Shown in pieces: positions 9,775-25,680 of a stretch of 30,132 nucleotides of DNA. How positions within the stretch are numbered: the first letter of the stretch is position 1; the number at the start of each line of letters is the position of its first letter. Origin of the DNA: a virus (taxonomy: Duplodnaviria; Caudoviricetes); IMG/VR virus record IMGVR_UViG_3300033067_000617, positions 1 to 30,132 of that record; one strand, written 5' to 3'. The notes under the pieces are model-generated. The model saw only the letters and a program-made list of their open reading frames with translations, was not told where the DNA came from and ran no database searches. The position numbers were made by a program, and so were the translations under genes.

Positions 9775-10755
9775 ATGGGCCTGGTGTCCAACAAGATGGG
9801 CCAAGACTGGAATGCTTACTGGTCTGGCTCGAAGGCTGGCGATAGCCAGTCCTGGGTGAATGGCACGCTGACGCGCAACAATGACGGATCGGCCACCTAT
9901 AAGCGCAATGACGGCTCCAGCGTGAACTTCAACCAAGGCACGGCGATAGATGAATTGGCATCGGGAAACAAGGATATCGCCAATGCCTGGGGCAACACCT
10001 ACGGCTACAAGCCGGATTCCGAAGTCAAAATTCCTGAATTCAAGATGCCGACAGCGGCAACGGGTGGCGGCCCAGGCGCGGTGACGCGCAGCGTGACTGA
10101 CAACGAGCTGACATCGAGCAACCTGACCAAGCTGCTGCAGGGCGATTCGCCGTACATCAAGCAGGCAATGGACAGGTCGCTGCAGACGATGGGCGAGCGT
10201 GGGCTGGTGAATTCATCGCTGGCGGCCGGCGCCGGCACGGCAGCGGCGATTGACGCTGCATTGCCGATTGCCAGCGCCGATGCCAGCGCATACGGTACAG
10301 CGGCGCGAGACAACCAGAGCGCGCAAAACAATTTCAATCTGGCCGACAAGCAGGCGGCCAACAGCGCGGCGATTGCCGGCATGCAGATGGCCGGTCAGGC
10401 GCAACTTGCTGGCATCAATGCCGCTTATCAGCAGCAGGCGCAGGATCGGCAATTCGGCCAGCAGTTCCAGCTGCAGCAGAATCAAAACGATTTCAATGCC
10501 AAGCAGCTGCGTGATCAGCAGCAGTTCCAGCTTGATCAGCTGAAAATCAACATGGATCTGGCGTATGACAAGATGACGCTGGATCAGACCAATACCTATG
10601 CGCAGGGCTATCTGAATATCGTCAACAGCAATATGCCGGCTGCGGATAAGGCGATTGCTTTGTCTGGTTACTCGGCCATCTACGGATTTAGCGACGGCAT
10701 GGCCACCGATACCACGATTGATCTATCTGCGTTGCCAGCGGCGGGTGGCGGCTGA
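9775..10755 (+). CDS. Putative internal virion / DNA ejection protein
   Basis: Ala/Gln-rich; RGLVNSSLAAGAG and ALPIASADA motifs; position after the tail genes. Confidence 0.6.
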   Translation: MGLVSNKMGQDWNAYWSGSKAGDSQSWVNGTLTRNNDGSATYKRNDGSSVNFNQGTAIDELASGNKDIANAWGNTYGYKPDSEVKIPEFKMPTAATGGGPGAVTRSVTDNELTSSNLTKLLQGDSPYIKQAMDRSLQTMGERGLVNSSLAAGAGTAAAIDAALPIASADASAYGTAARDNQSAQNNFNLADKQAANSAAIAGMQMAGQAQLAGINAAYQQQAQDRQFGQQFQLQQNQNDFNAKQLRDQQQFQLDQLKINMDLAYDKMTLDQTNTYAQGYLNIVNSNMPAADKAIALSGYSAIYGFSDGMATDTTIDLSALPAAGGG

Positions 10756-13987: not shown

Positions 13988-14018
13988 AGGCCCGGCACTC
14001 GTCGGGCCTTTTGTTTTT
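13988..14018 (+). terminator. Rho-independent terminator
   Basis: AGGCCCGGC-ACTC-GTCGGGCCT followed by TTTGTTTTT, just before the SD of the giant gene. Confidence 0.75.
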
Positions 14019-14028
14019 CTGAGGCCAA

Positions 14029-17000
14029 ATGTCCAAGAAGAAAGTTGTATTCGACGCCTATGCGTTGCTGAACTCGCCGGAAATGTCCGCCTATCTGGAT
14101 AAGCAGGAAGCCGAACAGGCCGAGCAGAAAAAGAGGCTTGTCGCTGAACAAGAGGCGAAGCAGCGCAAAACAGGTGGCCAGCAATCCCGTTCGGTGTCTG
14201 ATGACGAGTTATCGCCAGAAGCGTTGAGGCGCGACAACATCAGCCAGACAACAGGCGATATTACAGGCCGTGCAAACGATGTATGGCAGGCGCTCAAGAG
14301 TGGTGGTGCGACACTGATTCAGGGTGCTGGCTGGCTAGCGAACGAAGCCGGCGCGCATGATTCTGGCCAGTTCCTGCAGGACATTGGCCAGATCGGACAA
14401 GAGCAGGCGCTGGCCAACATGACGCAAGCCGGGCGTGAGGCGCAGAAGAACGGGGTGTTCAAGGAGGATCTGAGCGGCGTCAATGATGATTGGGGCCGTG
14501 GCATGGCGCAAGGCATTGCCGGATCTGCTGTGCCGTCGATTGTCGGTGCCATGCTGGGGGCGCCGATTGCGCGTGGCATTGGTGCAGCGGGTGAGGCGGT
14601 GCTTGGCCGTGCGGTGGTATCTGATGGCGCGCTGGGTTCGGTGCTGGATGCGGCAACAAAATACACCCCCGCACCTATCATGCGTCTGACTGGCGCATTG
14701 CCTGGCGCTGCGGGAGCGGGCGCGGGTGAGGCTGCAGTGACTGGCGCAACCAATGGCGCGCAGGCATATCAGGAAGTGATGGACGCGCCGATTGAATCGC
14801 TGCGCAAATCGCCGGCATTCCAGAGCCTGAGCAAAGAGCTTGGCAGCGAGGATGCGGCACGCAAGGCCATTGCCGACCGTGTGTCGATCCAGACCGCAAA
14901 GGACACTGCGCTGTCTACCGGCCTGATTGGCGCGGCAATGGGCGGCGGTGCAGTCGGTTCGCTGCTGAACAAGTTTGCCGTCAAGCAGGGCGCCAAGGAA
15001 GTTGGCAAACTTGGCGCCAAGGCTGCTGCAAAAGAAGTGCTGAAAGATGGCGCAAAGGAGTTTGCAGAGGAATTCGCGCAATCCGGCCCGGAGCATTACC
15101 TGCAGAATGCCGCCAAACGCGATTACCTTGACCCGACCATCGACCCGTCAACCGGCATGTTGCGCGCTTCGCTGGAAGGTGGCGTAGTTGGCATGGGCCA
15201 GGGCATGGGGATGTCGGGTGGTGCGCATGCCGTGAATCACCTGCTGACGCGAAACGATCCGCAGCCAGCAAAACAACCACAGCCGCAACCACAACCCGCG
15301 CCAGTTGCCACGCCAGAATCCGTTGCCGGTTACGACCCCATCGCGCCGAATCAGGCCGATCTGCTGCGCCGCATGGGTGTTGAGGCTGACCCGGTAGCGG
15401 ATGCAGCCGCAGCATCGGTGGAATCGGTGCTGGGCGCTGGCGACCCGACCGCCGGGCTAGTGGCCAGCGTAATGCGTGGCGAGGCGCTGCAGCCTATCCA
15501 CGATATGGCGGCGGTGCGCGCCAATACGGTGTTGCCGGTCGGATCGAATGAGGGCGGGCTGTATGAGCCGCAATGGCTGCCGGATGCAGAGCAAGGCGAA
15601 TCGTCCAACGGCATGCGGATGCCGCGCCGTGGCTTCGACTCGCAGGAGCAAATGCTTGCCAATGCCGGCATGGATGCCCGCGACGTACAGCGCAAGGCGG
15701 ATATCGCCAGCCAGGTTGATGCCGCATGGGCGCAGCAACAAAACCCGGTTCAGAAGGCCCGCGAACTGGAATCGCTGGCGCAGGAATCGGCCGTGCCGGT
15801 GGCGATTGATCGTGCAGAACAGTCGAACCAGATCAATCAGGTATTGGCGAATGCGGCCGGTGAAGGCGAGTCGGTGCCGAATGCGATGCAGTTGGCGCTG
15901 CAGCGGGCGCAGAATCAGGGCGCGGCGGCAAAACCTGAAGAAAATACGCAAAAAACCGCAAAAAGTTTCATGACCGATGGCGCATCGGATGTGGTAGCAC
16001 CACAAACAATCACGTCACAGCATGGCATTGCACATGCCATTACCGAGCCGGATCAGGCCGATACAGCTCCGAACATTTCTGACAAAGCTCCGAGTATTCC
16101 GGCTCCAGCTCCGAACATTTCCAGCGATCCGGCGCTCACCATGCAGCAAACCGAGCGCGGCCAGTGGCTGATCAAGGGCGACATGGCGCAGCATGCCGGT
16201 GCTATTCGTGACGCGCTCAAGGGTATGAATGTACTCGTCAGCCCGAAGAAAGGGCAGGCGCTGGTGGCGATGCCGAAGGACAAGGACACCAGCAAGCAAG
16301 CGAAGGCTATCCGCAAGGCGCTGGATCATCTGCTGTTGAACGGCGAGCAATTGGCGCAACGTGACGCGCAACGCGCCCAAGCCGGTGAACGCATGCAGGC
16401 GCGGAACAAGCAGGCGCTGCAGGTTGATCATGCTAACGACGACATTTTGCAGGCCATTGCAAAAATGGGCGGCATCGACACCGAGCAGGCGCTGTCTGAG
16501 TGGTGGCGCGGTCAGTCAGAAACTGTCGGCCATTACAACGCAGAGGTGCCGGGCAATCTGCGCCGGCAAGGTGCGTTTGCCTTCAAGCGCGGCGGCCAGC
16601 CGATTGACACCGTGATTCGCCGGCTGGAAGGTGAAGGCTATTTGCCGGAAGGCGCAACGCCGAATGATCTGCTGGATGCCATCGAGCAACGCCGGCTGCA
16701 CCCGGCCGGCATGGAAGAACAGGCCCGCCGCGAATTTGATGCCCGTCAGCAAGAAGAACAGGCCAATGCACCGGGCGAGTTTCAGCAGGCGTATGATGAG
16801 GGCAGGTTTGCGGATGAATTTACCAAGCGCGAACTGGAAGAAGAAACCGATTATTTTGAGTTGAATCGCCAGAATCGCGAAGCCGCAGAGGATGCCGCAG
16901 CGACGGCAGAAGCGGCCGAGCTAGACAGACTTATTGATAACGCCCCGGTGATTGCAAGCAAATCCGGGCCAGTGACAGAGGAAGAACTAGATGCCATCTT

Positions 17001-20000
17001 CGGCCAACAACCGAGAAACACCGCAGCAGAAGGCACGCAGACTGATCGAGAGCCTGCCGCCGGAAGATCAATGGAAGGTACTGAAAGTGGCACGGCAACT
17101 GCAGAAGCTGCGCCAGAAGAAGATGGATTCGGCCTTGCCGGCTACACAGAAAGCGATCTCCGACGCGAAGAACGGGCCGCCGAGCAACAGCAACGAGAAG
17201 TAGAGCGCCAGCGCGCCGCTGCCGACAAGGCGCGCCAGGACGAGGAAACCCGCAAGGAAATCCGCCGCCGCTCTGAGGCTGCGGCTGATACGTTCACGCT
17301 GGGCGGAAACGCCGAGGACAATCTGACCGGGCAGGGCGGGTTGTTTGATGCGCCGGCGGAATCGAGTAGCGAACAAAATGCCGACCGCTCGCCGGAAAAA
17401 GTGCCAGATTTGGCACCAAATGCGGCGAGTAGCGCGGAAATGGACGCGCTTAAAGCGGAAATGGGCGATGCAATTGGCGAACTGGCATCGATCCTTGGTG
17501 CGCGCAAAAACCTGACGCCAGAAGAAGAATCGAGAATCATCCCGGTCATGTCCAAGATTTTCCGGATCGCGGCCAAGATGGGGTTTGTGAAGTTCCGCGA
17601 CGCGGCGCAGCATGTGATGAGCCAGATCCGACAGCTGGCCGGTGACGAAATCGCGGACAAGCTGAGCATTGATAACCTGCAGGCTGGGTATATCAACATT
17701 GCCAGCGAGATTGGCGGTGATAAGCGCGAAGCGCTGGCGTATGATTCAATTGAGCAACTAGAGAAAGATAAAGATCATGTCACTGACCAGCGTAGCGGCT
17801 CCGATCTGGAACGAAATAGCGCAGACGCAACACCTGAAAACGGCGTGGGCGCGCAAGGCGTTCGCGCTGGACGGGCAGGGAATGGCCGAACTGGAAGATC
17901 AGGAGTGGAAAGCACTCAAGGCGAAGTCGGACAGCGAGACAGCATCGGCCCTGATGAACGTGAAGCCGCTGATTCTGGAGAACGTAGCGATAGCGAAGTT
18001 TACGCAGGATCACCCATCGTTACGCCAGGTTCTGCCGGAAGTCGTGTCGATATCGGAAGCACTGATTCTGGCATCCCAGGATTACCCGTTGAACCGCAAG
18101 CAACAAGCCAGATTGCGCGAGTTGCTAAAAGCGACCATCGAAAACAGTTAGCCAAGGACGAGCAGCGAGAGGCCGACAAGCACGCAGCCAATGCGAGCGT
18201 TGCCGATGCGCTGCCGATCCTGACAGAAGGCCAGCAACAGGACGTGGTGAAGGCCGAGGCGCGTTTCGCATTGCCAGATGGCTACGGCATGCTGTTCACC
18301 AATGGCACCGGCACAGGCAAGACCTTTACCGGGCTGGGTGTTATCAAGCGGTTCGTCAATAACGGCAAGACCAATATCCTTGTCGTTGCACCTAACGACA
18401 AAATCATTGAGGACTGGCAGCGATCCGGCAAGATGCTTGGGCTGGATCTGGCGCGACTGGCAAACACCAGCGAAGCAGGCAAGGGGCTGGTGATCACCAC
18501 CTATGCCAACATGGGGGCCAATAACGCTCTGGCTGGACGGGATTGGGATCTTGTTGTTCACGACGAGGCGCATTACCTTGCCATGGACAAGGACGGCACC
18601 AATACCAACGCGCTGAAAGTGTTGCGCGCCATTTCCTTGCACCATGACGGCGCCTACCATCGCCACGCCATGCTGAACGCTGACGAGATTGCACTGGCCA
18701 ATCGCCTTGCCAAAGAGGCCGAGATGCAGCGCACGTCTGACAACGAGCAGGAGTGGTATCTGGCCAATGAGACACAGGCCAAGGCGGACAAGCTCGCCAA
18801 TGAGTTGAGCAAGAAGCTGGACGCCATCAAGGCGGATGTGGCGTCGCGCCAGGGTGCGGCACGCACGCGGGTTGTATTCCTTTCTGCCACGCCTTTTGCC
18901 TACGAAAAAACCATCGATTGGGCGAACGGCTACCTGTTTGACTACAACGAAGGCCGCAGCAACGAGGAAAACAGCTATCGCGGCTACAACCAAGGCAGCA
19001 ACCGCGAGCAGTTTTTCATGCAGCACCTTGGATACCGGATGCGCTACGGCAAGCTGACAGCGCCGGATGCCAAGGTGGATGCCGGGCTGATGCAGCGCCA
19101 GTTCAATGCCTACCTGAAAAAGAAAGGATCGCTGTCTGGTCGCATGCTGGACGTGAAAGCGGACTATGACCGCCGCTTTATTCTGGTGGATTCCGCCATT
19201 GGCAAGCGCATCGATGATGCTTTCGAGTGGCTGAGAGACAAATCAGCCGGCACCGATGCGTCAGCGACAGAATATCGGAGCATGATCGACCATCTGTATG
19301 AAAAGTTCGATTATCTGGCGCGGCGCTATCTGCTGGAATCGATCAAGGCGCGTGAGGTTGTGCCGCATATCCGTGAGCACATGGCGCTAGGTCGGAAAGT
19401 CGTTGTTTTCCATGACTACAAAAAAGGCGGCGGATTTAACCCATTTATTTTCAGCGGCGAAATGTTCGACCACAACGCCGTTGACGCCTTCAATCAAGAA
19501 TTCCGCGACATCATCAATTCCAGTCTTTTCCGCCAGTCATCACCGATTGATATGTTCAAGCAGGAGTTTCCTGATGTGCTGCTGTTCAATGGCGACGTGC
19601 CAGCCAATCAGCGCCGCGCCAATGTGGCGAAGTTTCAGGATGACGCCAGCGGGCCGCAGATCATCCTGGTTCAATCGGCCGCAGGCAAGGAGGGGATTAG
19701 CCTGCACGACACAACCGGCAAGCATCAGCGCGTGCTGTTCAATCTTGGCCAGCCGACGCAACCCACCACCGCGATTCAGCAAGAGGGCAGGATCTACCGC
19801 ACCGGGCAGGTGACGGATGCAATTTTCCGCTACTTGAACACTGGCACCAATTGGGAAAAATTGGCGTTCGCCACCACTATCGCCCAGCGCGCCAGCGCGG
19901 CTGAGAACCTTGGCATGGGCGAAATGGCGCGTGCGCTGAAAGACGCATTCATTGCTGGTTTCGAGGAATCCGACAACTACCGTGCGGGCATGGAAGGCGA

Positions 20001-23000
20001 AGGCAAGGGAGGCAAGGAGCGCGACCGTGCTGCGAATGATGCGCTGACAGAATACGATCGAGCGCGTTCGTTCTACTTCGGCACCCAAAAGAAAAACGCA
20101 CAGACCAAGGCCAAAGAAGGCAAGGACTACTTTGCCACGCCTGAGCCGGTCGGCCTGAAAATGGCCGAGTTTGCCGATGTGCGCCCAGGCGAGTCTGTAC
20201 TGGAGCCTTCTGCCGGGCATGGTGCGATTGCGCGCTGGTTTCCGGAGGATGCAAACCGAACCGCCATCGAACCAAGTACCGCGCTGCGCGCACGGCTGGC
20301 AATGGTGTTTGATGGCAAGATCATTGACTCTGACTTTGAAGGTCACAACATCGTCAACAAGTACGATGCGATTGTGATGAACCCGCCATTTGGCGTTGGC
20401 GGAAAGACGGCCGTTGATCATTTGTCCAAGGCTGCTGGTCATCTGCGCGAAGGCGGTCGAGTCGTTGCGCTGCTGCCATCCGGGCCGGCTGCCGACAAGC
20501 GGCTGGACAATTTCCTGTATGGCGAAACAGAGCGCGAGGTGAAGCCACTGCTGGAGCACCCAACGCTTGGGCCTGTGTACCGTGGCGACACAGTGAGCAC
20601 CAACGCGGCATGGGCAAAGCAAGGCGTGCTATCCCGCAAAGACCGTGGCGGCGGATACTGGCTTGAAGTAAAGACCCCTTCAGGAAAATCAGAATACCAG
20701 GTGAATCCTGCCGCATGGACGGCCGTTGAAGCAACAGGCAAGCGCAAGGAGACATATCGCCCGGCTGGTGATCTGTCGCTTGTGGCGGATATCAAGCTGC
20801 CATCTGTCACGTTCGAGCGCGCAGGCACCGGTGTTATGACGCACATTATCGTGCTGGAAAAGGGCAAGGCTGGCGCAGAGGCAGACGTTCAACAGGTTAA
20901 TCGTGATCTGGCTGGAATAGACAACATCAATGATCTATTCAAGCGCATGGAGAACATGACGCTGCCCAAGCGAGTCAACGCGGCTGAGCCACGTATTCAA
21001 GAATCTTCCAGCGAGAGTGGCGCCGTTGAATCTTCCGGCCCGGAAGCAGGCGCCAGTGGGCTGGACATTGTTGAGCACACCACCGCCAAGGGGAAAGTGC
21101 TGCGCGGAGTGATCCGCACCGATCTGACCCAGGCACAGGCAAAAGAGATTGACCCGTACACGTTCAAGAAAGATGGCGGGTATTTCATCAGGGATAGATA
21201 CTTAGGGCAAGGCGGCACACTCAACAGCACAGCCAGCCACACCACAACACAACAACGCATGACACAGCAGCAGCTGCAGGATCTGCTTCACAAGGCCGTG
21301 CCGCCGCATTTGCGCGGCATGATCAAGGTGGCGCAGAGCCGCAACGCCGAGACAGGTGGCAGCAACACCCATCAATCCACGGCCGACGAGGTGATTGACG
21401 ACGTTGAGGCCACCTACGACCCGACGACAAACGAAATCACCTTCTACGCTGACGCGATGGATTCGCCAGAGCGCGCCTTGTTCGTGCTCTCGCATGAGCT
21501 GACCCACTACGGCCTGGATGCGAAATACGGTTTTGGCCTATCCAATATCCTGCTGGAAACCCGCAACAACCCGATGATTGCCAAGCTGGCGGCGGCCATT
21601 GCCGTTGACAGAAGCATGACCGTCAACAGCGTGCGCCAGGATATTGCTGACGCGCTGGGCGTACCGGTTGCCCGCATAGCCCGGAGCGCGGCCATTCATC
21701 GCCTGCAAGTTGAAACCGCCAACGAGGCATTGGCCGAGCTGAATGCCGCCATCGAGCGCGACGACTTCGCCTATCTGCAGGAGCGTTATGGCGTGGCCGT
21801 GCCGAAGATGATGCGCAATGATCTGCGTGGCCGGCTGGCGCGCCTGACGGCTTCGGTTAAAGCATGGCTGGCCAAATTGACCGGCAAGCAAGCCACCGAA
21901 TACAGCGATAAGCAGGTTTGGGATTTGCTGGCTGGGGTGCGGGAAACGGTGCGTGGTGGCGGAAAGTTGTCTGCTGGGTATCGTGATGGCGCTGCACAGC
22001 ACAGCATGGCCGCGTCATCGAAAACAATCAACATTGACGGAGTGACACGCCCGACTACCAACAGCAACGGCAAGCCTATCGCACAGACCGAAGAAGGGCT
22101 GCGCAACTTCTGGCGCTGGTTTGGTGATAGCAAGGTGGTGGATAAGGATGGCAAGCCGCTGGTGGTGTATCACGGCACGGAGTCGGATTTTGATAGCTTT
22201 GACCAGAACAAGGTAAAAACCACAAAGCTAGGCTCTGGATTCTATTTTGCGAAAGACCCCGAAACGGCCAATCTGTATGCCGGATTCTCTGGCAGCAACG
22301 TGGTACCCGTATATCTGCGCATGGAACGCCCGCTAATTGCGTCTAGCGTAGAAGAAGCCCGGCAGATTCTGGAAGATAACGGCCAGTACATGAACATTGA
22401 TGAATTCAGTGGGACGCACGCCGCAGACATGGCAGACGTCTTGGCTAAAGCAGGGTTCGATGGGATCATGTACGACGGCGTTATGGTGGTTCAAAACCCC
22501 ACCCAAATCAAATCCGCCGTGGGCAACCAAGGCACATTCAATGGCAGCGCCCCTAACATTCTGCGCAGTACCGCCCCCAAACAACCCGCTTCGGCGGGTT
22601 TTTCTTTGCCAGAAGAAACCAAAGCCCATGCCACACAGCGCGAAGTGCAGGACAACATGAACCGCTGGCGTCAGGTACTGGAGAATGTGCGCGAGCAGGG
22701 CGGGCAGGTTGACGAGCAGAACGACGTGTACGGCGCAGAAGAACGTTTCCACGGCCGGACGGCAACGCGCATTGAGGACTTTGCGCGGGATGAGGTGGAG
22801 CCGCTGATGCAACGCCTGGCCGATTCTGGCCATTCGCTGCAGGATGTTGAACAATATCTGCTGGCGCAGCACGCCGAAGAAGCCAACGCCCGTATTCGTG
22901 AAATCGACGATAGCCGCGACACGGCTTTCGGCATGGAAGATGGCGAGGCGCAATCGATCCTGGCGAAGTTTGCCGCCATGCCTGACGCTGCCGAATTCAA

Positions 23001-25335
23001 ACGGCTGGCCAATGATTTCCGCCGCATTTCCGAAGGCACGCTGTCGCTTTATGTGAAGGCCGGCATTGTGTCGCCAGAAGCTGCGCATGCAATGCGGATG
23101 GCGTATCAGTTCTATGTGCCGGTTAAGGGTGGCGACGAGGATCAGGCCGCACGCCAAGGCACTGGCAAGGGTTTGAGCGTGAACGGCAAGCAAAAGCGCC
23201 GCATGGGCCACGATATGCGCGATGAGCATGTGCTTGAGAACATGCTGCGCGACCGTCAGCGCGCCATTGTTCTGGCCGAGAAAAACAACGTCGGCACCTA
23301 TCTGCTGGATCTGATCGAGCGCAACCCTGATCCGAAGCTATGGACGGTGAATGTGCTGCCGAAACAGAAGGTGCTGCGCGATCAGGTGTCGTATGTGGTT
23401 GAACTGAACGGCCAGATGCTGGACGCATTCAACAGCATGGAGGCGGCCCGCGTGTTTATCCAGGCCGAGGCGGCGCGCACAGGCAGCAAGCCAGGCGCGT
23501 TTGCCGTGTCGAAATCGTCTGATCCCTATGTGTCGATGATGGCCAAGCCAACCCTGCAGGATCATGAGGTGCAGGTTTACGTGCAAGGCCGGGCGGTACG
23601 TATCCAGTTGCACGATCCAATCCTGGCTGGCCAGTACCGGCGCATGGGTACGGAGCAGATGGGGCGGATTATCGAGGCGGGCAAATCACTGAACCGCTGG
23701 CTATCCAAGGTCTACACCGGCTACAACCCGGAGTTTTTCGTCAAGAACGTGGTGCGCGACCTGTTCGCTGGCACGATCAATCTGACAGCAGACCAAGGCG
23801 CAAAGGTGACGGCGCGGGCCTTGTGGCACTGGCCAAAGGCGGGCGCAGCGATGTTCAAGTTTGCGCTGACCGGCAAGGCGCCATCCGGCGACTATGGCAA
23901 GGCATTGCAGCGTTACCGTGCGGCTGGCGGATCTACAGGCGCCGCCTACATGGGCGACCTGGAGCGCCAGGCAAACACGCTGACGGAGCTGTACGAGAAC
24001 TATACCGGTGCGATGGCAACGCTGCAGCAGGGGAAGCCGTTCAAGGCGGCGCGCATCGCCGGTCGTAAGCTGGTACAAGGTTTGGCGCACTGGTTCGAGG
24101 TATGGAATCAAGCCGGTGAAAGCGCATTCCGCCTGGCCACCTTCATGGCCATGCAGGAGAGCGGAAAGACCGTGGCAGAATCGGCCAGCATGGCGAAAAA
24201 CGTAACGGTGAACTTCAACCGAAAAGGCGAGTTGACCCCGCAACTTGGCGCGCTGTATCTGTTCTTTAATCCGAACGTGCAAGGTTCGCAGCGGCTGTGG
24301 CAATCGCTATTCGGCGGCGACACCAAACACAAGGCGCAAGCATGGGCCTTGGTCGGCTCGATGGCGGGCGCCGCATTGGCGCTGGCGATGATGAATCGCG
24401 GCGACGACGAAGATGAATGGGAGGCTATCCCTGATAGCACGAAGGATCGCAACCTGATTATCCCGCTGGGCAACAAGCGCAAGCTGACCATCCCGCTGCC
24501 GTATGGCTATAGCTTCTTCGTTTCGATGGCAAACCGGCTTGATGCGTTAATGCACGGCGAATCGGCCGAGAAAGCCAGTATTCGCATGGCTTCCAGCTTC
24601 TTCGAGAACTTTAGCCCAGTCGGCAATCCGATTGGCGATGATCCGAAGTTGGAAAACATGCTGATGCTATTGCCAACTGCAATCAAGATCCCTGCCCTTC
24701 CGGCTGCCAACATTACTGATTTTGGCGGGCCGATGCGACCTGATTACAAGGAAACTCAGCCTGACAACGAAAAGATGTGGCGCGGCACACGCGGCAGTCT
24801 GTATGACAAGGCAGCACAAGGCATATCCAGCCTCTATGGATCGCCATATGAGAACAACTGGAACGATATCAGCCCGGAAACCATCAAATATCTGTTCAAA
24901 ACGCTGGCTGGCGGAACCGGTGGGTTTATGGCTGATTCGGCATCGCTGCTGAATGTGTTGGCCAGTGGCAGTGCGCCCGACGTGTCCGAGGTGCCTTTCC
25001 TTCGATCTGCCGTGCGCGAATCGACAGTAAAAGACGCCCGCGCCCGATTCTACGATTTGGGCAAGGACGCCAAAGGCCACGTCGAAGCATGGAATCGTGC
25101 CGTTGAGGCCGGCGACGACAAGGCTGCGACAGAGTACGAGCAGGATGGCGAGCTGATGGCACTAGGCCAAATGATGGACGGCTACCGCAAGCAGGCGACT
25201 GCATTACGGGATTTGATGGCGCTGGAAATGCAGCGCGAGGATCTGACGCTGGCGGAAAAGCGGATGAAGCAGAAATCCTACGAGAGCCAGGAGGCCGAGA
25301 TTTACCGCGAGTACATCCGCCAGTTCAAGCACTGA
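14029..25335 (+). CDS. Large polyvalent (DarB-like) virion-ejected protein, 3768 aa
   Basis: SF2 helicase, N6A-MTase, HExxH peptidase, ART-like and LPD38-like motifs in one ORF; SD GAGG; last gene of the ejection cluster. Confidence 0.9.
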   Translation: MSKKKVVFDAYALLNSPEMSAYLDKQEAEQAEQKKRLVAEQEAKQRKTGGQQSRSVSDDELSPEALRRDNISQTTGDITGRANDVWQALKSGGATLIQGAGWLANEAGAHDSGQFLQDIGQIGQEQALANMTQAGREAQKNGVFKEDLSGVNDDWGRGMAQGIAGSAVPSIVGAMLGAPIARGIGAAGEAVLGRAVVSDGALGSVLDAATKYTPAPIMRLTGALPGAAGAGAGEAAVTGATNGAQAYQEVMDAPIESLRKSPAFQSLSKELGSEDAARKAIADRVSIQTAKDTALSTGLIGAAMGGGAVGSLLNKFAVKQGAKEVGKLGAKAAAKEVLKDGAKEFAEEFAQSGPEHYLQNAAKRDYLDPTIDPSTGMLRASLEGGVVGMGQGMGMSGGAHAVNHLLTRNDPQPAKQPQPQPQPAPVATPESVAGYDPIAPNQADLLRRMGVEADPVADAAAASVESVLGAGDPTAGLVASVMRGEALQPIHDMAAVRANTVLPVGSNEGGLYEPQWLPDAEQGESSNGMRMPRRGFDSQEQMLANAGMDARDVQRKADIASQVDAAWAQQQNPVQKARELESLAQESAVPVAIDRAEQSNQINQVLANAAGEGESVPNAMQLALQRAQNQGAAAKPEENTQKTAKSFMTDGASDVVAPQTITSQHGIAHAITEPDQADTAPNISDKAPSIPAPAPNISSDPALTMQQTERGQWLIKGDMAQHAGAIRDALKGMNVLVSPKKGQALVAMPKDKDTSKQAKAIRKALDHLLLNGEQLAQRDAQRAQAGERMQARNKQALQVDHANDDILQAIAKMGGIDTEQALSEWWRGQSETVGHYNAEVPGNLRRQGAFAFKRGGQPIDTVIRRLEGEGYLPEGATPNDLLDAIEQRRLHPAGMEEQARREFDARQQEEQANAPGEFQQAYDEGRFADEFTKRELEEETDYFELNRQNREAAEDAAATAEAAELDRLIDNAPVIASKSGPVTEEELDAIFGQQPRNTAAEGTQTDREPAAGRSMEGTESGTATAEAAPEEDGFGLAGYTESDLRREERAAEQQQREVERQRAAADKARQDEETRKEIRRRSEAAADTFTLGGNAEDNLTGQGGLFDAPAESSSEQNADRSPEKVPDLAPNAASSAEMDALKAEMGDAIGELASILGARKNLTPEEESRIIPVMSKIFRIAAKMGFVKFRDAAQHVMSQIRQLAGDEIADKLSIDNLQAGYINIASEIGGDKREALAYDSIEQLEKDKDHVTDQRSGSDLERNSADATPENGVGAQGVRAGRAGNGRTGRSGVESTQGEVGQRDSIGPDEREAADSGERSDSEVYAGSPIVTPGSAGSRVDIGSTDSGIPGLPVEPQATSQIARVAKSDHRKQLAKDEQREADKHAANASVADALPILTEGQQQDVVKAEARFALPDGYGMLFTNGTGTGKTFTGLGVIKRFVNNGKTNILVVAPNDKIIEDWQRSGKMLGLDLARLANTSEAGKGLVITTYANMGANNALAGRDWDLVVHDEAHYLAMDKDGTNTNALKVLRAISLHHDGAYHRHAMLNADEIALANRLAKEAEMQRTSDNEQEWYLANETQAKADKLANELSKKLDAIKADVASRQGAARTRVVFLSATPFAYEKTIDWANGYLFDYNEGRSNEENSYRGYNQGSNREQFFMQHLGYRMRYGKLTAPDAKVDAGLMQRQFNAYLKKKGSLSGRMLDVKADYDRRFILVDSAIGKRIDDAFEWLRDKSAGTDASATEYRSMIDHLYEKFDYLARRYLLESIKAREVVPHIREHMALGRKVVVFHDYKKGGGFNPFIFSGEMFDHNAVDAFNQEFRDIINSSLFRQSSPIDMFKQEFPDVLLFNGDVPANQRRANVAKFQDDASGPQIILVQSAAGKEGISLHDTTGKHQRVLFNLGQPTQPTTAIQQEGRIYRTGQVTDAIFRYLNTGTNWEKLAFATTIAQRASAAENLGMGEMARALKDAFIAGFEESDNYRAGMEGEGKGGKERDRAANDALTEYDRARSFYFGTQKKNAQTKAKEGKDYFATPEPVGLKMAEFADVRPGESVLEPSAGHGAIARWFPEDANRTAIEPSTALRARLAMVFDGKIIDSDFEGHNIVNKYDAIVMNPPFGVGGKTAVDHLSKAAGHLREGGRVVALLPSGPAADKRLDNFLYGETEREVKPLLEHPTLGPVYRGDTVSTNAAWAKQGVLSRKDRGGGYWLEVKTPSGKSEYQVNPAAWTAVEATGKRKETYRPAGDLSLVADIKLPSVTFERAGTGVMTHIIVLEKGKAGAEADVQQVNRDLAGIDNINDLFKRMENMTLPKRVNAAEPRIQESSSESGAVESSGPEAGASGLDIVEHTTAKGKVLRGVIRTDLTQAQAKEIDPYTFKKDGGYFIRDRYLGQGGTLNSTASHTTTQQRMTQQQLQDLLHKAVPPHLRGMIKVAQSRNAETGGSNTHQSTADEVIDDVEATYDPTTNEITFYADAMDSPERALFVLSHELTHYGLDAKYGFGLSNILLETRNNPMIAKLAAAIAVDRSMTVNSVRQDIADALGVPVARIARSAAIHRLQVETANEALAELNAAIERDDFAYLQERYGVAVPKMMRNDLRGRLARLTASVKAWLAKLTGKQATEYSDKQVWDLLAGVRETVRGGGKLSAGYRDGAAQHSMAASSKTINIDGVTRPTTNSNGKPIAQTEEGLRNFWRWFGDSKVVDKDGKPLVVYHGTESDFDSFDQNKVKTTKLGSGFYFAKDPETANLYAGFSGSNVVPVYLRMERPLIASSVEEARQILEDNGQYMNIDEFSGTHAADMADVLAKAGFDGIMYDGVMVVQNPTQIKSAVGNQGTFNGSAPNILRSTAPKQPASAGFSLPEETKAHATQREVQDNMNRWRQVLENVREQGGQVDEQNDVYGAEERFHGRTATRIEDFARDEVEPLMQRLADSGHSLQDVEQYLLAQHAEEANARIREIDDSRDTAFGMEDGEAQSILAKFAAMPDAAEFKRLANDFRRISEGTLSLYVKAGIVSPEAAHAMRMAYQFYVPVKGGDEDQAARQGTGKGLSVNGKQKRRMGHDMRDEHVLENMLRDRQRAIVLAEKNNVGTYLLDLIERNPDPKLWTVNVLPKQKVLRDQVSYVVELNGQMLDAFNSMEAARVFIQAEAARTGSKPGAFAVSKSSDPYVSMMAKPTLQDHEVQVYVQGRAVRIQLHDPILAGQYRRMGTEQMGRIIEAGKSLNRWLSKVYTGYNPEFFVKNVVRDLFAGTINLTADQGAKVTARALWHWPKAGAAMFKFALTGKAPSGDYGKALQRYRAAGGSTGAAYMGDLERQANTLTELYENYTGAMATLQQGKPFKAARIAGRKLVQGLAHWFEVWNQAGESAFRLATFMAMQESGKTVAESASMAKNVTVNFNRKGELTPQLGALYLFFNPNVQGSQRLWQSLFGGDTKHKAQAWALVGSMAGAALALAMMNRGDDEDEWEAIPDSTKDRNLIIPLGNKRKLTIPLPYGYSFFVSMANRLDALMHGESAEKASIRMASSFFENFSPVGNPIGDDPKLENMLMLLPTAIKIPALPAANITDFGGPMRPDYKETQPDNEKMWRGTRGSLYDKAAQGISSLYGSPYENNWNDISPETIKYLFKTLAGGTGGFMADSASLLNVLASGSAPDVSEVPFLRSAVRESTVKDARARFYDLGKDAKGHVEAWNRAVEAGDDKAATEYEQDGELMALGQMMDGYRKQATALRDLMALEMQREDLTLAEKRMKQKSYESQEAEIYREYIRQFKH
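16065..16122 (+). repeat. Three direct repeats at 21-bp period inside the giant gene
   Basis: AGCTCCGAACATTTC (16065), AGCTCCGAGTATTCC (16086), AGCTCCGAACATTTC (16107). Confidence 0.85.
16991..17203 (+). CDS. Putative nested +1-frame small helical protein
   Basis: SD GAGGA at 16978-16982; ARRLIESLPPEDQWKVLKVARQL amphipathic helices; host frame is a disordered linker here. Confidence 0.5.
   Translation: MPSSANNRETPQQKARRLIESLPPEDQWKVLKVARQLQKLRQKKMDSALPATQKAISDAKNGPPSNSNEK
17717..17745 (+). promoter_or_regulatory. Putative internal sigma70 promoter for the nested gene
   Basis: GTGATA-N17-TATGAT, 31 nt upstream of ATG 17777. Confidence 0.5.
17777..18151 (+). CDS. Putative nested +1-frame 124-aa alpha-helical protein
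   Basis: Globular composition with genome-typical codons (CTG, GCG, CCG, AAG), while the host frame uses GGA, CGA, AGA and ACT and is low-complexity. Confidence 0.7.
   Translation: MSLTSVAAPIWNEIAQTQHLKTAWARKAFALDGQGMAELEDQEWKALKAKSDSETASALMNVKPLILENVAIAKFTQDHPSLRQVLPEVVSISEALILASQDYPLNRKQQARLRELLKATIENS
18200..19960 (+). other. SF2 helicase domain (strawberry-notch-like) of the giant protein
   Basis: Walker A GTGTGKT (~18304), DEAH (18562), SATP (18883), GISLHD (19693), QQEGRIYR (~19777). Confidence 0.85.
20125..20865 (+). other. N6-adenine DNA methyltransferase domain of the giant protein
   Basis: DYFATP, VLEPSAGHG (motif I), NPPF (20380, motif IV), TFERAGTGV. Confidence 0.9.
21400..21760 (+). 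other. Zincin-like metallopeptidase (MPTase) domain
   Basis: EATYDP...HELTH (21493-21507) with downstream EALAE. Confidence 0.7.
22090..22560 (+). other. ADP-ribosyltransferase-like (ART-PolyVal-type) domain
   Basis: FWRWFGDSKVVD, VYHGT, GFYF, PVYL, GFDGI, PTQIKS motifs. Confidence 0.75.
22583..22607 (+). terminator. Intragenic rho-independent terminator in the giant gene
   Basis: AACCCGC-TTCG-GCGGGTT followed by TTTCTTT; cUUCGg tetraloop. Confidence 0.65.
23650..25335 (+). other. LPD38-like C-terminal region
   Basis: YNPEFFVKNVVRD, VTVNFNRKG...LYLFFNPNVQG, IPLPYGY; boundaries approximate. Confidence 0.65.
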
Positions 25336-25680
25336 TCAGTTGCAGACCCGCGAATAGCCACTGCCGGTACACATCTTGCCGGTGCCGTAGTTGTAATAGG
25401 TGTTGCTGTCGCGGTTATAGTTCCACATATTGCCATCGGCATCGGTGCCGCTCTGGTTGCCGCTCCGGTCGCTGTGGCTGCGCCACTGGCTGCCGGTGTT
25501 GGCGTTGTTGCCGTAAGTATCGCTGGAGCCATCTGCATAGCGGCTGGTGTTGGTCATATTGCCGGTGGCTGGGTCATAGTGGCTGCTGCTGCGCGGCGTG
25601 CGTGGCTTGTATTCGTATGGGTTATCCCATGCCAGTGCGTTGCCGGCCAGCAGTGCCAGGATCAGGGCGGATAGTTTCAT
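25336..25680 (-). CDS. Small exported protein (moron)
   Basis: Signal peptide MKLSALILALLAGNALA; SD AAGGAG; C-terminal Cys pair. Confidence 0.8.
   Translation of the reverse strand: MKLSALILALLAGNALAWDNPYEYKPRTPRSSSHYDPATGNMTNTSRYADGSSDTYGNNANTGSQWRSHSDRSGNQSGTDADGNMWNYNRDSNTYYNYGTGKMCTGSGYSRVCN

Follow-up and report, generated by a model that had tools for sequence, protein, structure and literature searches.

The 30,132-base window analysed here is an entire virus record (IMG/VR IMGVR_UViG_3300033067_000617; Duplodnaviria, Caudoviricetes), whose virion module is closed by a giant polyvalent open reading frame (ORF) on the plus strand (14029–25335) encoding 3768 amino acids (aa). An initial annotation of the sequence had described this 11.3-kb ORF as a hidden operon, in which formerly separate genes were fused by reading through them in another frame while small +1-frame partners stayed expressible, and its extent is confirmed here. 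Two protein-like +1 genes had been proposed within it without inner coordinates. The best candidates, both on the plus strand, are ORF-B (17777–18151, 124 aa), which its conservation confirms, and ORF-A (16991–17203, 70 aa), which is supported somewhat less firmly.

Conservation and distribution of ORF-B

ORF length is no evidence for nested genes, since synonymous recoding of the giant gene yields on average 2.6 open +1 stretches of at least 125 codons and three are observed. The two frames over ORF-B have evolved very differently. Across the same bases, 78 sequences share 37 % identity in the B frame but 24 % in the giant frame, and B-frame identity is the higher in 99.6 % of 3003 pairs. The ratio of non-synonymous to synonymous substitution (dN/dS), which the initial annotation had proposed to compare between frames, is 0.28 for B and 1.77 for the giant frame, and is lower in B in all 33 disjoint pairs; the giant-frame value above 1 is forced by the overlap and does not reflect adaptation. 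Recoding of B introduces a mean of 3.9 stops into the giant frame, whereas the nested copies have none, and across B the giant frame is a low-complexity spacer rich in G, A, D, R and S and lacking W and C. Every B-positive row of the sets picked by helicase (see below) starts with ATG, a Shine–Dalgarno (SD) motif precedes 85 of the 129 B starts compared with 1392 of 13394 other +1 ATGs, and B start regions are less folded. With the ATG and SD conserved and the frame open, the small partners are predicted to be still expressible, as had been supposed. ORF-B is thus a complete ORF inside another on the same strand, with its own start signal and with both frames kept; as judged from its sequence it is a real gene under purifying selection, with its own ATG and usually an SD motif, and the giant frame across it is a drifting spacer that is kept open.

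There are 52 close homologs of ORF-B, and 579 family representatives (50 % identity clusters) are recovered at E-values of 0.001 or better. All 50 viral loci found with B carry it inside a long ORF in the +1 frame, while the 17 B loci from genomes comprise nine nested in long ORFs, two contig-edge fragments and six orphans. For an unbiased test, loci were chosen by helicase alone and then checked for B, which is nested, +1 and ATG-started in 80 of 80 such viral loci (the best 80 of 355) and present in 69 of a further, more distant 80 (the best 80 of at least 146). After removal of duplicates and of L231–L235, which are unrelated SNF2 proteins with hidden Markov model (HMM) scores of 22–35, B is found in 127 of 132 distinct relatives, always +1 and 5′ of the helicase. 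The check for +1 stops in homologs proposed in the initial annotation does not refute it, ORF-B being open in those 127. The five B-negative relatives are four stand-alone helicase-methylases of 844–916 aa and one distant 2480-aa giant, the stand-alone versions lying in AT-rich, non-virion neighbourhoods. Where the helicase-methylase is fused to an N-terminal extension, B accompanies it; beside the stand-alone versions there is none.

The position of B is also regular. The helicase is 3′ of it in 148 of 149 B loci, and B sits 101–755 nt before the Walker A motif despite a varying upstream domain. A giant-frame segment that we call domain X (17461–17769, plus strand; helical by pattern and with no family match) has counterparts flanking ORF-B in 106 of the 149 loci, as found with an HMM built from six seeds (an earlier HMM converged on 17 loci only). 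B is nested as well in proteins of 1240–1280 aa that adjoin DarA_N and ddrB-ParB genes and have no X. All five cultured phages concerned, Serratia phage Parlo, Klebsiella phage ZX1, Pseudomonas phage Skulduggery, Ruegeria phage 45A6 and Vibrio phage 1.232.O, nest B, and it is annotated in none of the five records. A plasmid search gave one match, beneath an LPD38-domain gene.

The ORF-B product is predicted to be all-helical (predicted local distance difference test, pLDDT, 90.7), and neither it nor the ORF-A product contains cysteine. ORF-B matches no Pfam, PHROG, NCBIfam or PADLOC family, and none of 33 long B homologs is matched by Pfam. Fold searches with Foldseek against the PDB and BFVD returned nothing at an E-value of 0.001 or better, and the best hit among 48,161 chains with VIA-align has a Z-score of 4.6, results that together do not prove a new fold; the ESM Atlas gave no usable match, and an Rfam search gave none.

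Some further features of the helicase loci may be noted. The four stand-alone genes without B, all Strawberry-notch (Sno)-like helicase-methylase genes on AT-rich phage contigs (L157:6848–9466, L158:6971–9505, L159:6908–9658 and L161:6899–9490), sit among small genes, and two are then followed by a DnaB-like gene as read by eye. At two AT-rich P1-like loci (L195:2958–9934 and L198:893–9817), DarA_N, ddrB-ParB, InPase and LPD3 genes are followed by the short B-nesting helicase-methylase protein. At L034 (9986 region) some 650 inserted residues, which by eye resemble an intein, split the helicase directly behind its Walker A motif (GKAQPLDA).

The giant protein, further nested families and bacterial copies

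The 3768-aa product carries at least two unrelated conflict domains in one polypeptide. The Sno-like SF2 helicase (18196–19908, about aa 1390–1960) matches ResIII, Helicase_C and Helicase_C_4, and the Sno-type C-terminal domain is present at a score exceeding the curated cut-off (PF13871, E-value 1.8e-9). Beyond it on the same plus strand are an adenine methyltransferase-like domain with an NPPF motif (20086–20478, about aa 2020–2150; MTS, N6_Mtase below the curated cut-off, phrog_6263 and phrog_799), an ART-PolyVal domain recognized by family match (22141–22539) and a C-terminal module (22606–25320; phrog_14770 and phrog_616) that includes LPD38 at 24409–25002. In a sister contig the ART domain has been exchanged for an unrelated domain with both flanks retained. 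By eye, a small domain following the methylase (approximately 20995–21215, giant aa 2345–2395) resembles the segment preceding B in L195-type proteins, a likeness that suggests domain shuffling.

The genes upstream of the giant ORF match major head protein, SU10 adaptor and tail families, such that it lies within the virion module, a position shared by the cultured relatives. Downstream, on the opposite strand, are matches to antirepressor and integrase genes, from which we infer that the phage is temperate. A gene with a polysaccharide deacetylase domain (55–1317) lies just 5′ of the head genes, and a 114-aa gene on the minus strand (25336–25680) stands tail to tail with the giant stop codon; its product has a signal-peptide-like N-terminus and a Gly/Asn/Ser/Tyr-rich body, and has no family match.

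ORF-A encodes a basic protein and has GAGGA 8 nt before its ATG (SD energy −6.0 kcal/mol). An open frame at this place is trivial (P 0.88), but ORF-A has three homologs at 65–84 % identity, is 93 % identical in the sister contig, and belongs to a profile of seven loci, which has two further small groups as relatives (probability 96.6 and 67.6). On these sequence grounds it is probably a real gene. Other nested candidates were filtered by SD and composition, and 120 of 2232 passed, namely 61 of 436 within 2 kb 5′ of B and 59 of 1796 elsewhere. Hand-seeded profiles then recovered 54 further nested family members in 49 of the 149 loci, all in the +1 frame. Several of these families start where a recurring giant-frame segment ends, and acidic segments precede the basic peptides of families A and E. 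The description of a hidden operon is a fair one for the family: at ten loci the stop of a nested gene lies immediately ahead of the B start, and in the phage-type locus L241 one giant gene holds three nested genes (E, B and D) plus X, with the nested genes kilobases apart and the helicase between B and D.

Beside the ART domain of the window no nested gene was found. The +1 ORFs at 15476, 18278, 18836, 19403/19574, 20219 and 22397 were rejected: they have no family match where scanned, and the homologs of those over the helicase-methylase have scattered starts and mostly no SD motif. Nested +1 ORFs 1.8–3.3 kb 5′ of B in L084, L090 and L095 appear by eye to be HNH homing endonuclease fragments.

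Copies of B also occur in bacteria outside giant genes. Orphan copies adjoin PADLOC PDC-S11/PDC-S65 matches (L059), a type I restriction enzyme (L069), a pair read by eye as MazEF-like (L060), a tRNA-like end and transposase (L061) and a resolvase-like gene (L066). Elsewhere the modules are fused in one frame: E-X-B with a new domain in Bradyrhizobium japonicum WP_354269332, P0183, L238 and L239; X-B-D in B. lablabi WP_212499458; B-X in P0099 and P0123; and B-X-A3 in P0178. These fusions join nested families in a single frame with the enzymes missing, which implies that the small modules were kept and the enzymes lost. A single-chain model of P0183 (pLDDT 65.7, predicted template modelling score 0.43, from 22 sequences) has confident E and B domains, and its packing is uninformative. 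The C-terminal domain of P0183 (residues 250–413) matches widespread unnamed bacterial clusters (ESM Atlas feature score 0.93–0.95). As read by eye, P0079 (with L061:10004–10708) and P0175 join B to a C-terminal domain resembling a sliding-clamp subdomain, and P0057 and P0062 carry B with a helix-turn-helix-like tail.

Candidate transcription signals within the giant gene

An internal promoter had been proposed, and one sigma-70-like candidate does lie 5′ of B (17717–17745, plus strand; GTGATA-17-TATGAT, 9 of 12 positions matching), with 31 nt between its end and the ORF-B ATG; its −10 hexamer doubles as Tyr-Asp codons of the giant frame. The case is nevertheless weak. It is the sole such site in 11.9 kb, compared with 5.0 expected from shuffles, and the excess in relatives is modest, a site of at least 9/12 occurring within 200 nt 5′ of B in 22 of 129 compared with 6 % of random windows, a comparison confounded by AT-richness. 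Among RNA data, which consist of assembled contigs only, two contigs of one study begin at 17722–17746; an internal transcription start cannot be claimed, however, since further RNA contigs span this position and most of the phage is covered by the libraries.

The predicted intragenic terminator is a canonical hairpin (22583–22605, plus strand) with a 7-bp stem (22583–22600), UUCG loop and U-run (−11.9 kcal/mol, z −2.6), and falls between the ART domain and the C-terminal module. Its stem survives in the sister contig despite the ART swap, and it therefore belongs to the constant C-terminal module. It is not a conserved part of the family, though: any such hairpin is present in only 18 of 129 giants, at scattered positions, and the region has 17 terminator-like sites where 13.7 are expected. 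A stronger terminator-like hairpin (13988–14009, plus strand; −18.4 kcal/mol, z −5.0) lies 19 nt before the giant ATG, and late-operon read-through would presumably need antitermination there. Similar hairpins stand where the giant span begins in L088, L094 and L100.

The palindrome/repeat cluster of the initial annotation is not supported, its best candidates folding no better than chance (z +0.74 at 16064/16106, −0.09 at 20975–21060 and 0.0 at 21205–21285). The perfect 16-nt direct repeat (16064–16121, copies at 16064 and 16106, plus strand) lies in a linker of which related strains skip 33 nt, and is an ordinary small duplication. The proposed placing at domain junctions holds for ORF-A, ORF-B and the hairpin at 22583.

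Relation to known systems, origin and possible function

Nested genes as such are already known; phiX174 has them, and Rz1 lies in the +1 frame of its partner Rz. Passages describing the embedding of Rz1 within Rz (PMC9144972) show the same arrangement, one gene lying whole within another of that strand. Here, in contrast, the host gene has about 3800 codons and holds several nested genes in its spacers, and whereas Rz1 is a lipoprotein, the ORF-B product is cysteine-free, without a lipoprotein cysteine or signal, and is predicted to be a soluble helical protein. The giant protein itself belongs with the phage polyvalent proteins as presented in parts of their description (PMC5512222), with a giant ORF ending the virion module, an SF2 helicase, a methylase, ART-PolyVal and LPD38, and the same text notes a Sno-like variant in a few of them; its passages on nesting, embedding, overlap or reading frame do not mention nested genes. 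The giants of the five cultured phages, annotated as 'DarB-like' or 'PLxRFG', are of the same class. The DarB dyad as set out there (PMC5512222) runs LPD36, methylase and then SWI2/SNF2 helicase. In the window giant the helicase precedes the methylase and there is no LPD36 match, and with the domain order reversed it is not a DarB dyad.

Two further systems are close in spirit. Packaging was shown for P1 DarB, and JC1 gp69 was found in virions. According to parts of the P1 literature, protection against EcoB and EcoK requires, besides DarB, the 146-aa virion protein Ulx (PMC12810830, PMC11437467), so that there too a small protein is encoded beside a virion-packed methylase-helicase (PMC12810830, PMC11437467, PMC9024508); ulx is, however, a separate downstream gene and not nested, and hhalign gives B and Ulx, from a single P1 sequence, a homology probability of 0.3 %. 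The immunity and polyimmunity genes of polymorphic toxin systems, in the sections of PMC3482391 that treat them, are likewise small genes beside effector domains, with orphan copies and multi-module bacterial fusions. The B family has both, although prophage debris is possible; it differs in that the genes lie inside the effector gene and that the fusions include the giant-frame domain X. No immunity family was matched.

The origin of the arrangement is evenly balanced. Read-through fusion, as first proposed, is unproven, and we give about an even chance to the alternative, compatible with any function, that disordered spacers were overprinted to yield the nested genes. The +1 frame is used without exception by the 54 nested family members and the nested B copies, and de novo viral frames, according to parts of one study, are 75 % +1, more hydrophobic and less acidic than the ancestral frame (PMC8227390), a compositional trend (hydrophobic-rich, acidic-poor) that B shares. 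In a tree the orphan B copies examined are scattered next to different nested lineages. Two of them, L060 (one giant-frame stop compared with 10.9 expected) and L066 (none compared with 4.5), retain a giant frame that is almost open and are therefore derived copies; L059 and L061 are saturated and uninformative on origin, as are tests of frame openness. No ancestral free-standing B was found, and the stand-alone helicase genes have no B upstream. Against overprinting, codon adaptation is better in B than in the giant frame (0.106 compared with −0.167, with B the higher in 104 of 138), the low-complexity giant spacer resembles a shadow frame, and the frame used by the giant is the easier one to open in B (5.0 compared with 7.4 expected stops). 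Codon adaptation thus points to an older B, whereas the uniform +1 frame, the composition and the absence of ancestral free copies point to overprinting.

As to function, we tentatively favour, at a little under even confidence, the reading that the nested genes encode small separate proteins that attach to the giant protein and maintain its modules in an inactive or soluble state, as inhibitors or chaperones; it is suggested by the co-occurrence and the fusions. Ribosomes would initiate at the internal B ATG on late mRNA, and in some phages an internal promoter might perhaps also drive B. B would then be produced just where synthesis of the helicase-methylase is due to follow, and could bind that module or the neighbouring domain X, holding the modules inactive or soluble until packaging. 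Bacterial copies with B but no enzymes would be captured inhibitors.

Several observations weigh against this reading. The partner is ambiguous, being the helicase by co-occurrence and X by fusions, and since stand-alone helicase-methylases persist without detectable B the enzyme need not always be restrained. The giant of L009 (B at 10001–10390, with an altered B C-terminus) has B and X without the helicase, and the distant 2480-aa giant (L229) has no B match. The helicase queries came from B-positive loci and may favour B-positive relatives. The SD of ORF-B in the window is itself weak (−2.9 kcal/mol compared with a median of −6.6 in the family). The non-B families have few members (2–10) and are hand-seeded, and their SD strength is partly circular because the SD filter was used to seed them. 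B is present in only two of 401 genomes of one phylum, the second of which (L236) is a prophage copy by the look of its ORFs. The E-X-B fusions are 58–71 % alike and hence probably stem from a single event, and the fusions retain X, a giant-frame domain, and could be prophage debris. The broader proposal, that giant injected proteins carry out-of-frame inhibitors in spacers beside the domains they control and that bacteria fused these into multi-inhibitor anti-phage defences disarming the injected helicase-methylase, is one we regard as doubtful.

Two other roles for B are each rather unlikely in our judgement. B could be a positive accessory subunit that is packaged and injected alongside the giant protein and on which anti-restriction depends, in the way that P1 DarB depends on Ulx, and it does track the fused helicase-methylase, including at loci beside DarA_N and ddrB-ParB genes; but there is no homology between B and Ulx in the comparison above, and if B were an activator, bacteria would have no cause to retain it after losing the enzyme. 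With a similarly low probability, B may act on an unrelated host or phage target, for instance in nucleic-acid binding or anti-defence, and share only the expression slot. Its fusion to unrelated C-terminal domains in P0057, P0062, P0079 and P0175, a weak recurring likeness to ribosomal small-subunit chains (Z-scores up to 4.6, not significant) and the modest promoter enrichment 5′ of B would suit such a role, whereas the fixed position before Walker A and the lack of B beside stand-alone helicases would not.

It is very improbable that B yields no free protein and is reached by programmed frameshifting, or serves to re-initiate a shorter helicase protein. B does end just before the point at which stand-alone helicases start, yet its ATG and SD are conserved, and among 129 slippery heptamers occur in only six and the B stop is followed by an in-frame ATG in only 32, with none in the window. 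That chance accounts for both nested ORFs, as shadows of the giant frame, is scarcely credible, since, expected though open +1 stretches are for the giant gene and for ORF-A alike, conservation, selection and SD refute it for B, the shadow ORFs overlying the helicase lack an SD or a fixed start, and ORF-A has homologs, an SD and a related family.

A full-text literature search, which took in few subscription papers and did not cover supplements such as the PMC5512222 alignment files, found no description of genes nested in polyvalent or DarB-like genes. Sitting inside another gene, the B family is invisible to normal annotation. Virion proteomics against annotated ORFs cannot have detected nested products, and deletions in 'DarB-like' genes would unknowingly remove nested genes. 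The presence of B in cultured phages makes these proposals testable at once, and offers a handle on how a 400-kDa multi-enzyme protein can be synthesized and packaged by a phage without harm to the producing cell or the lysogen. If it is true that the bacterial fusions protect against phage, they would open a new route to defence genes.

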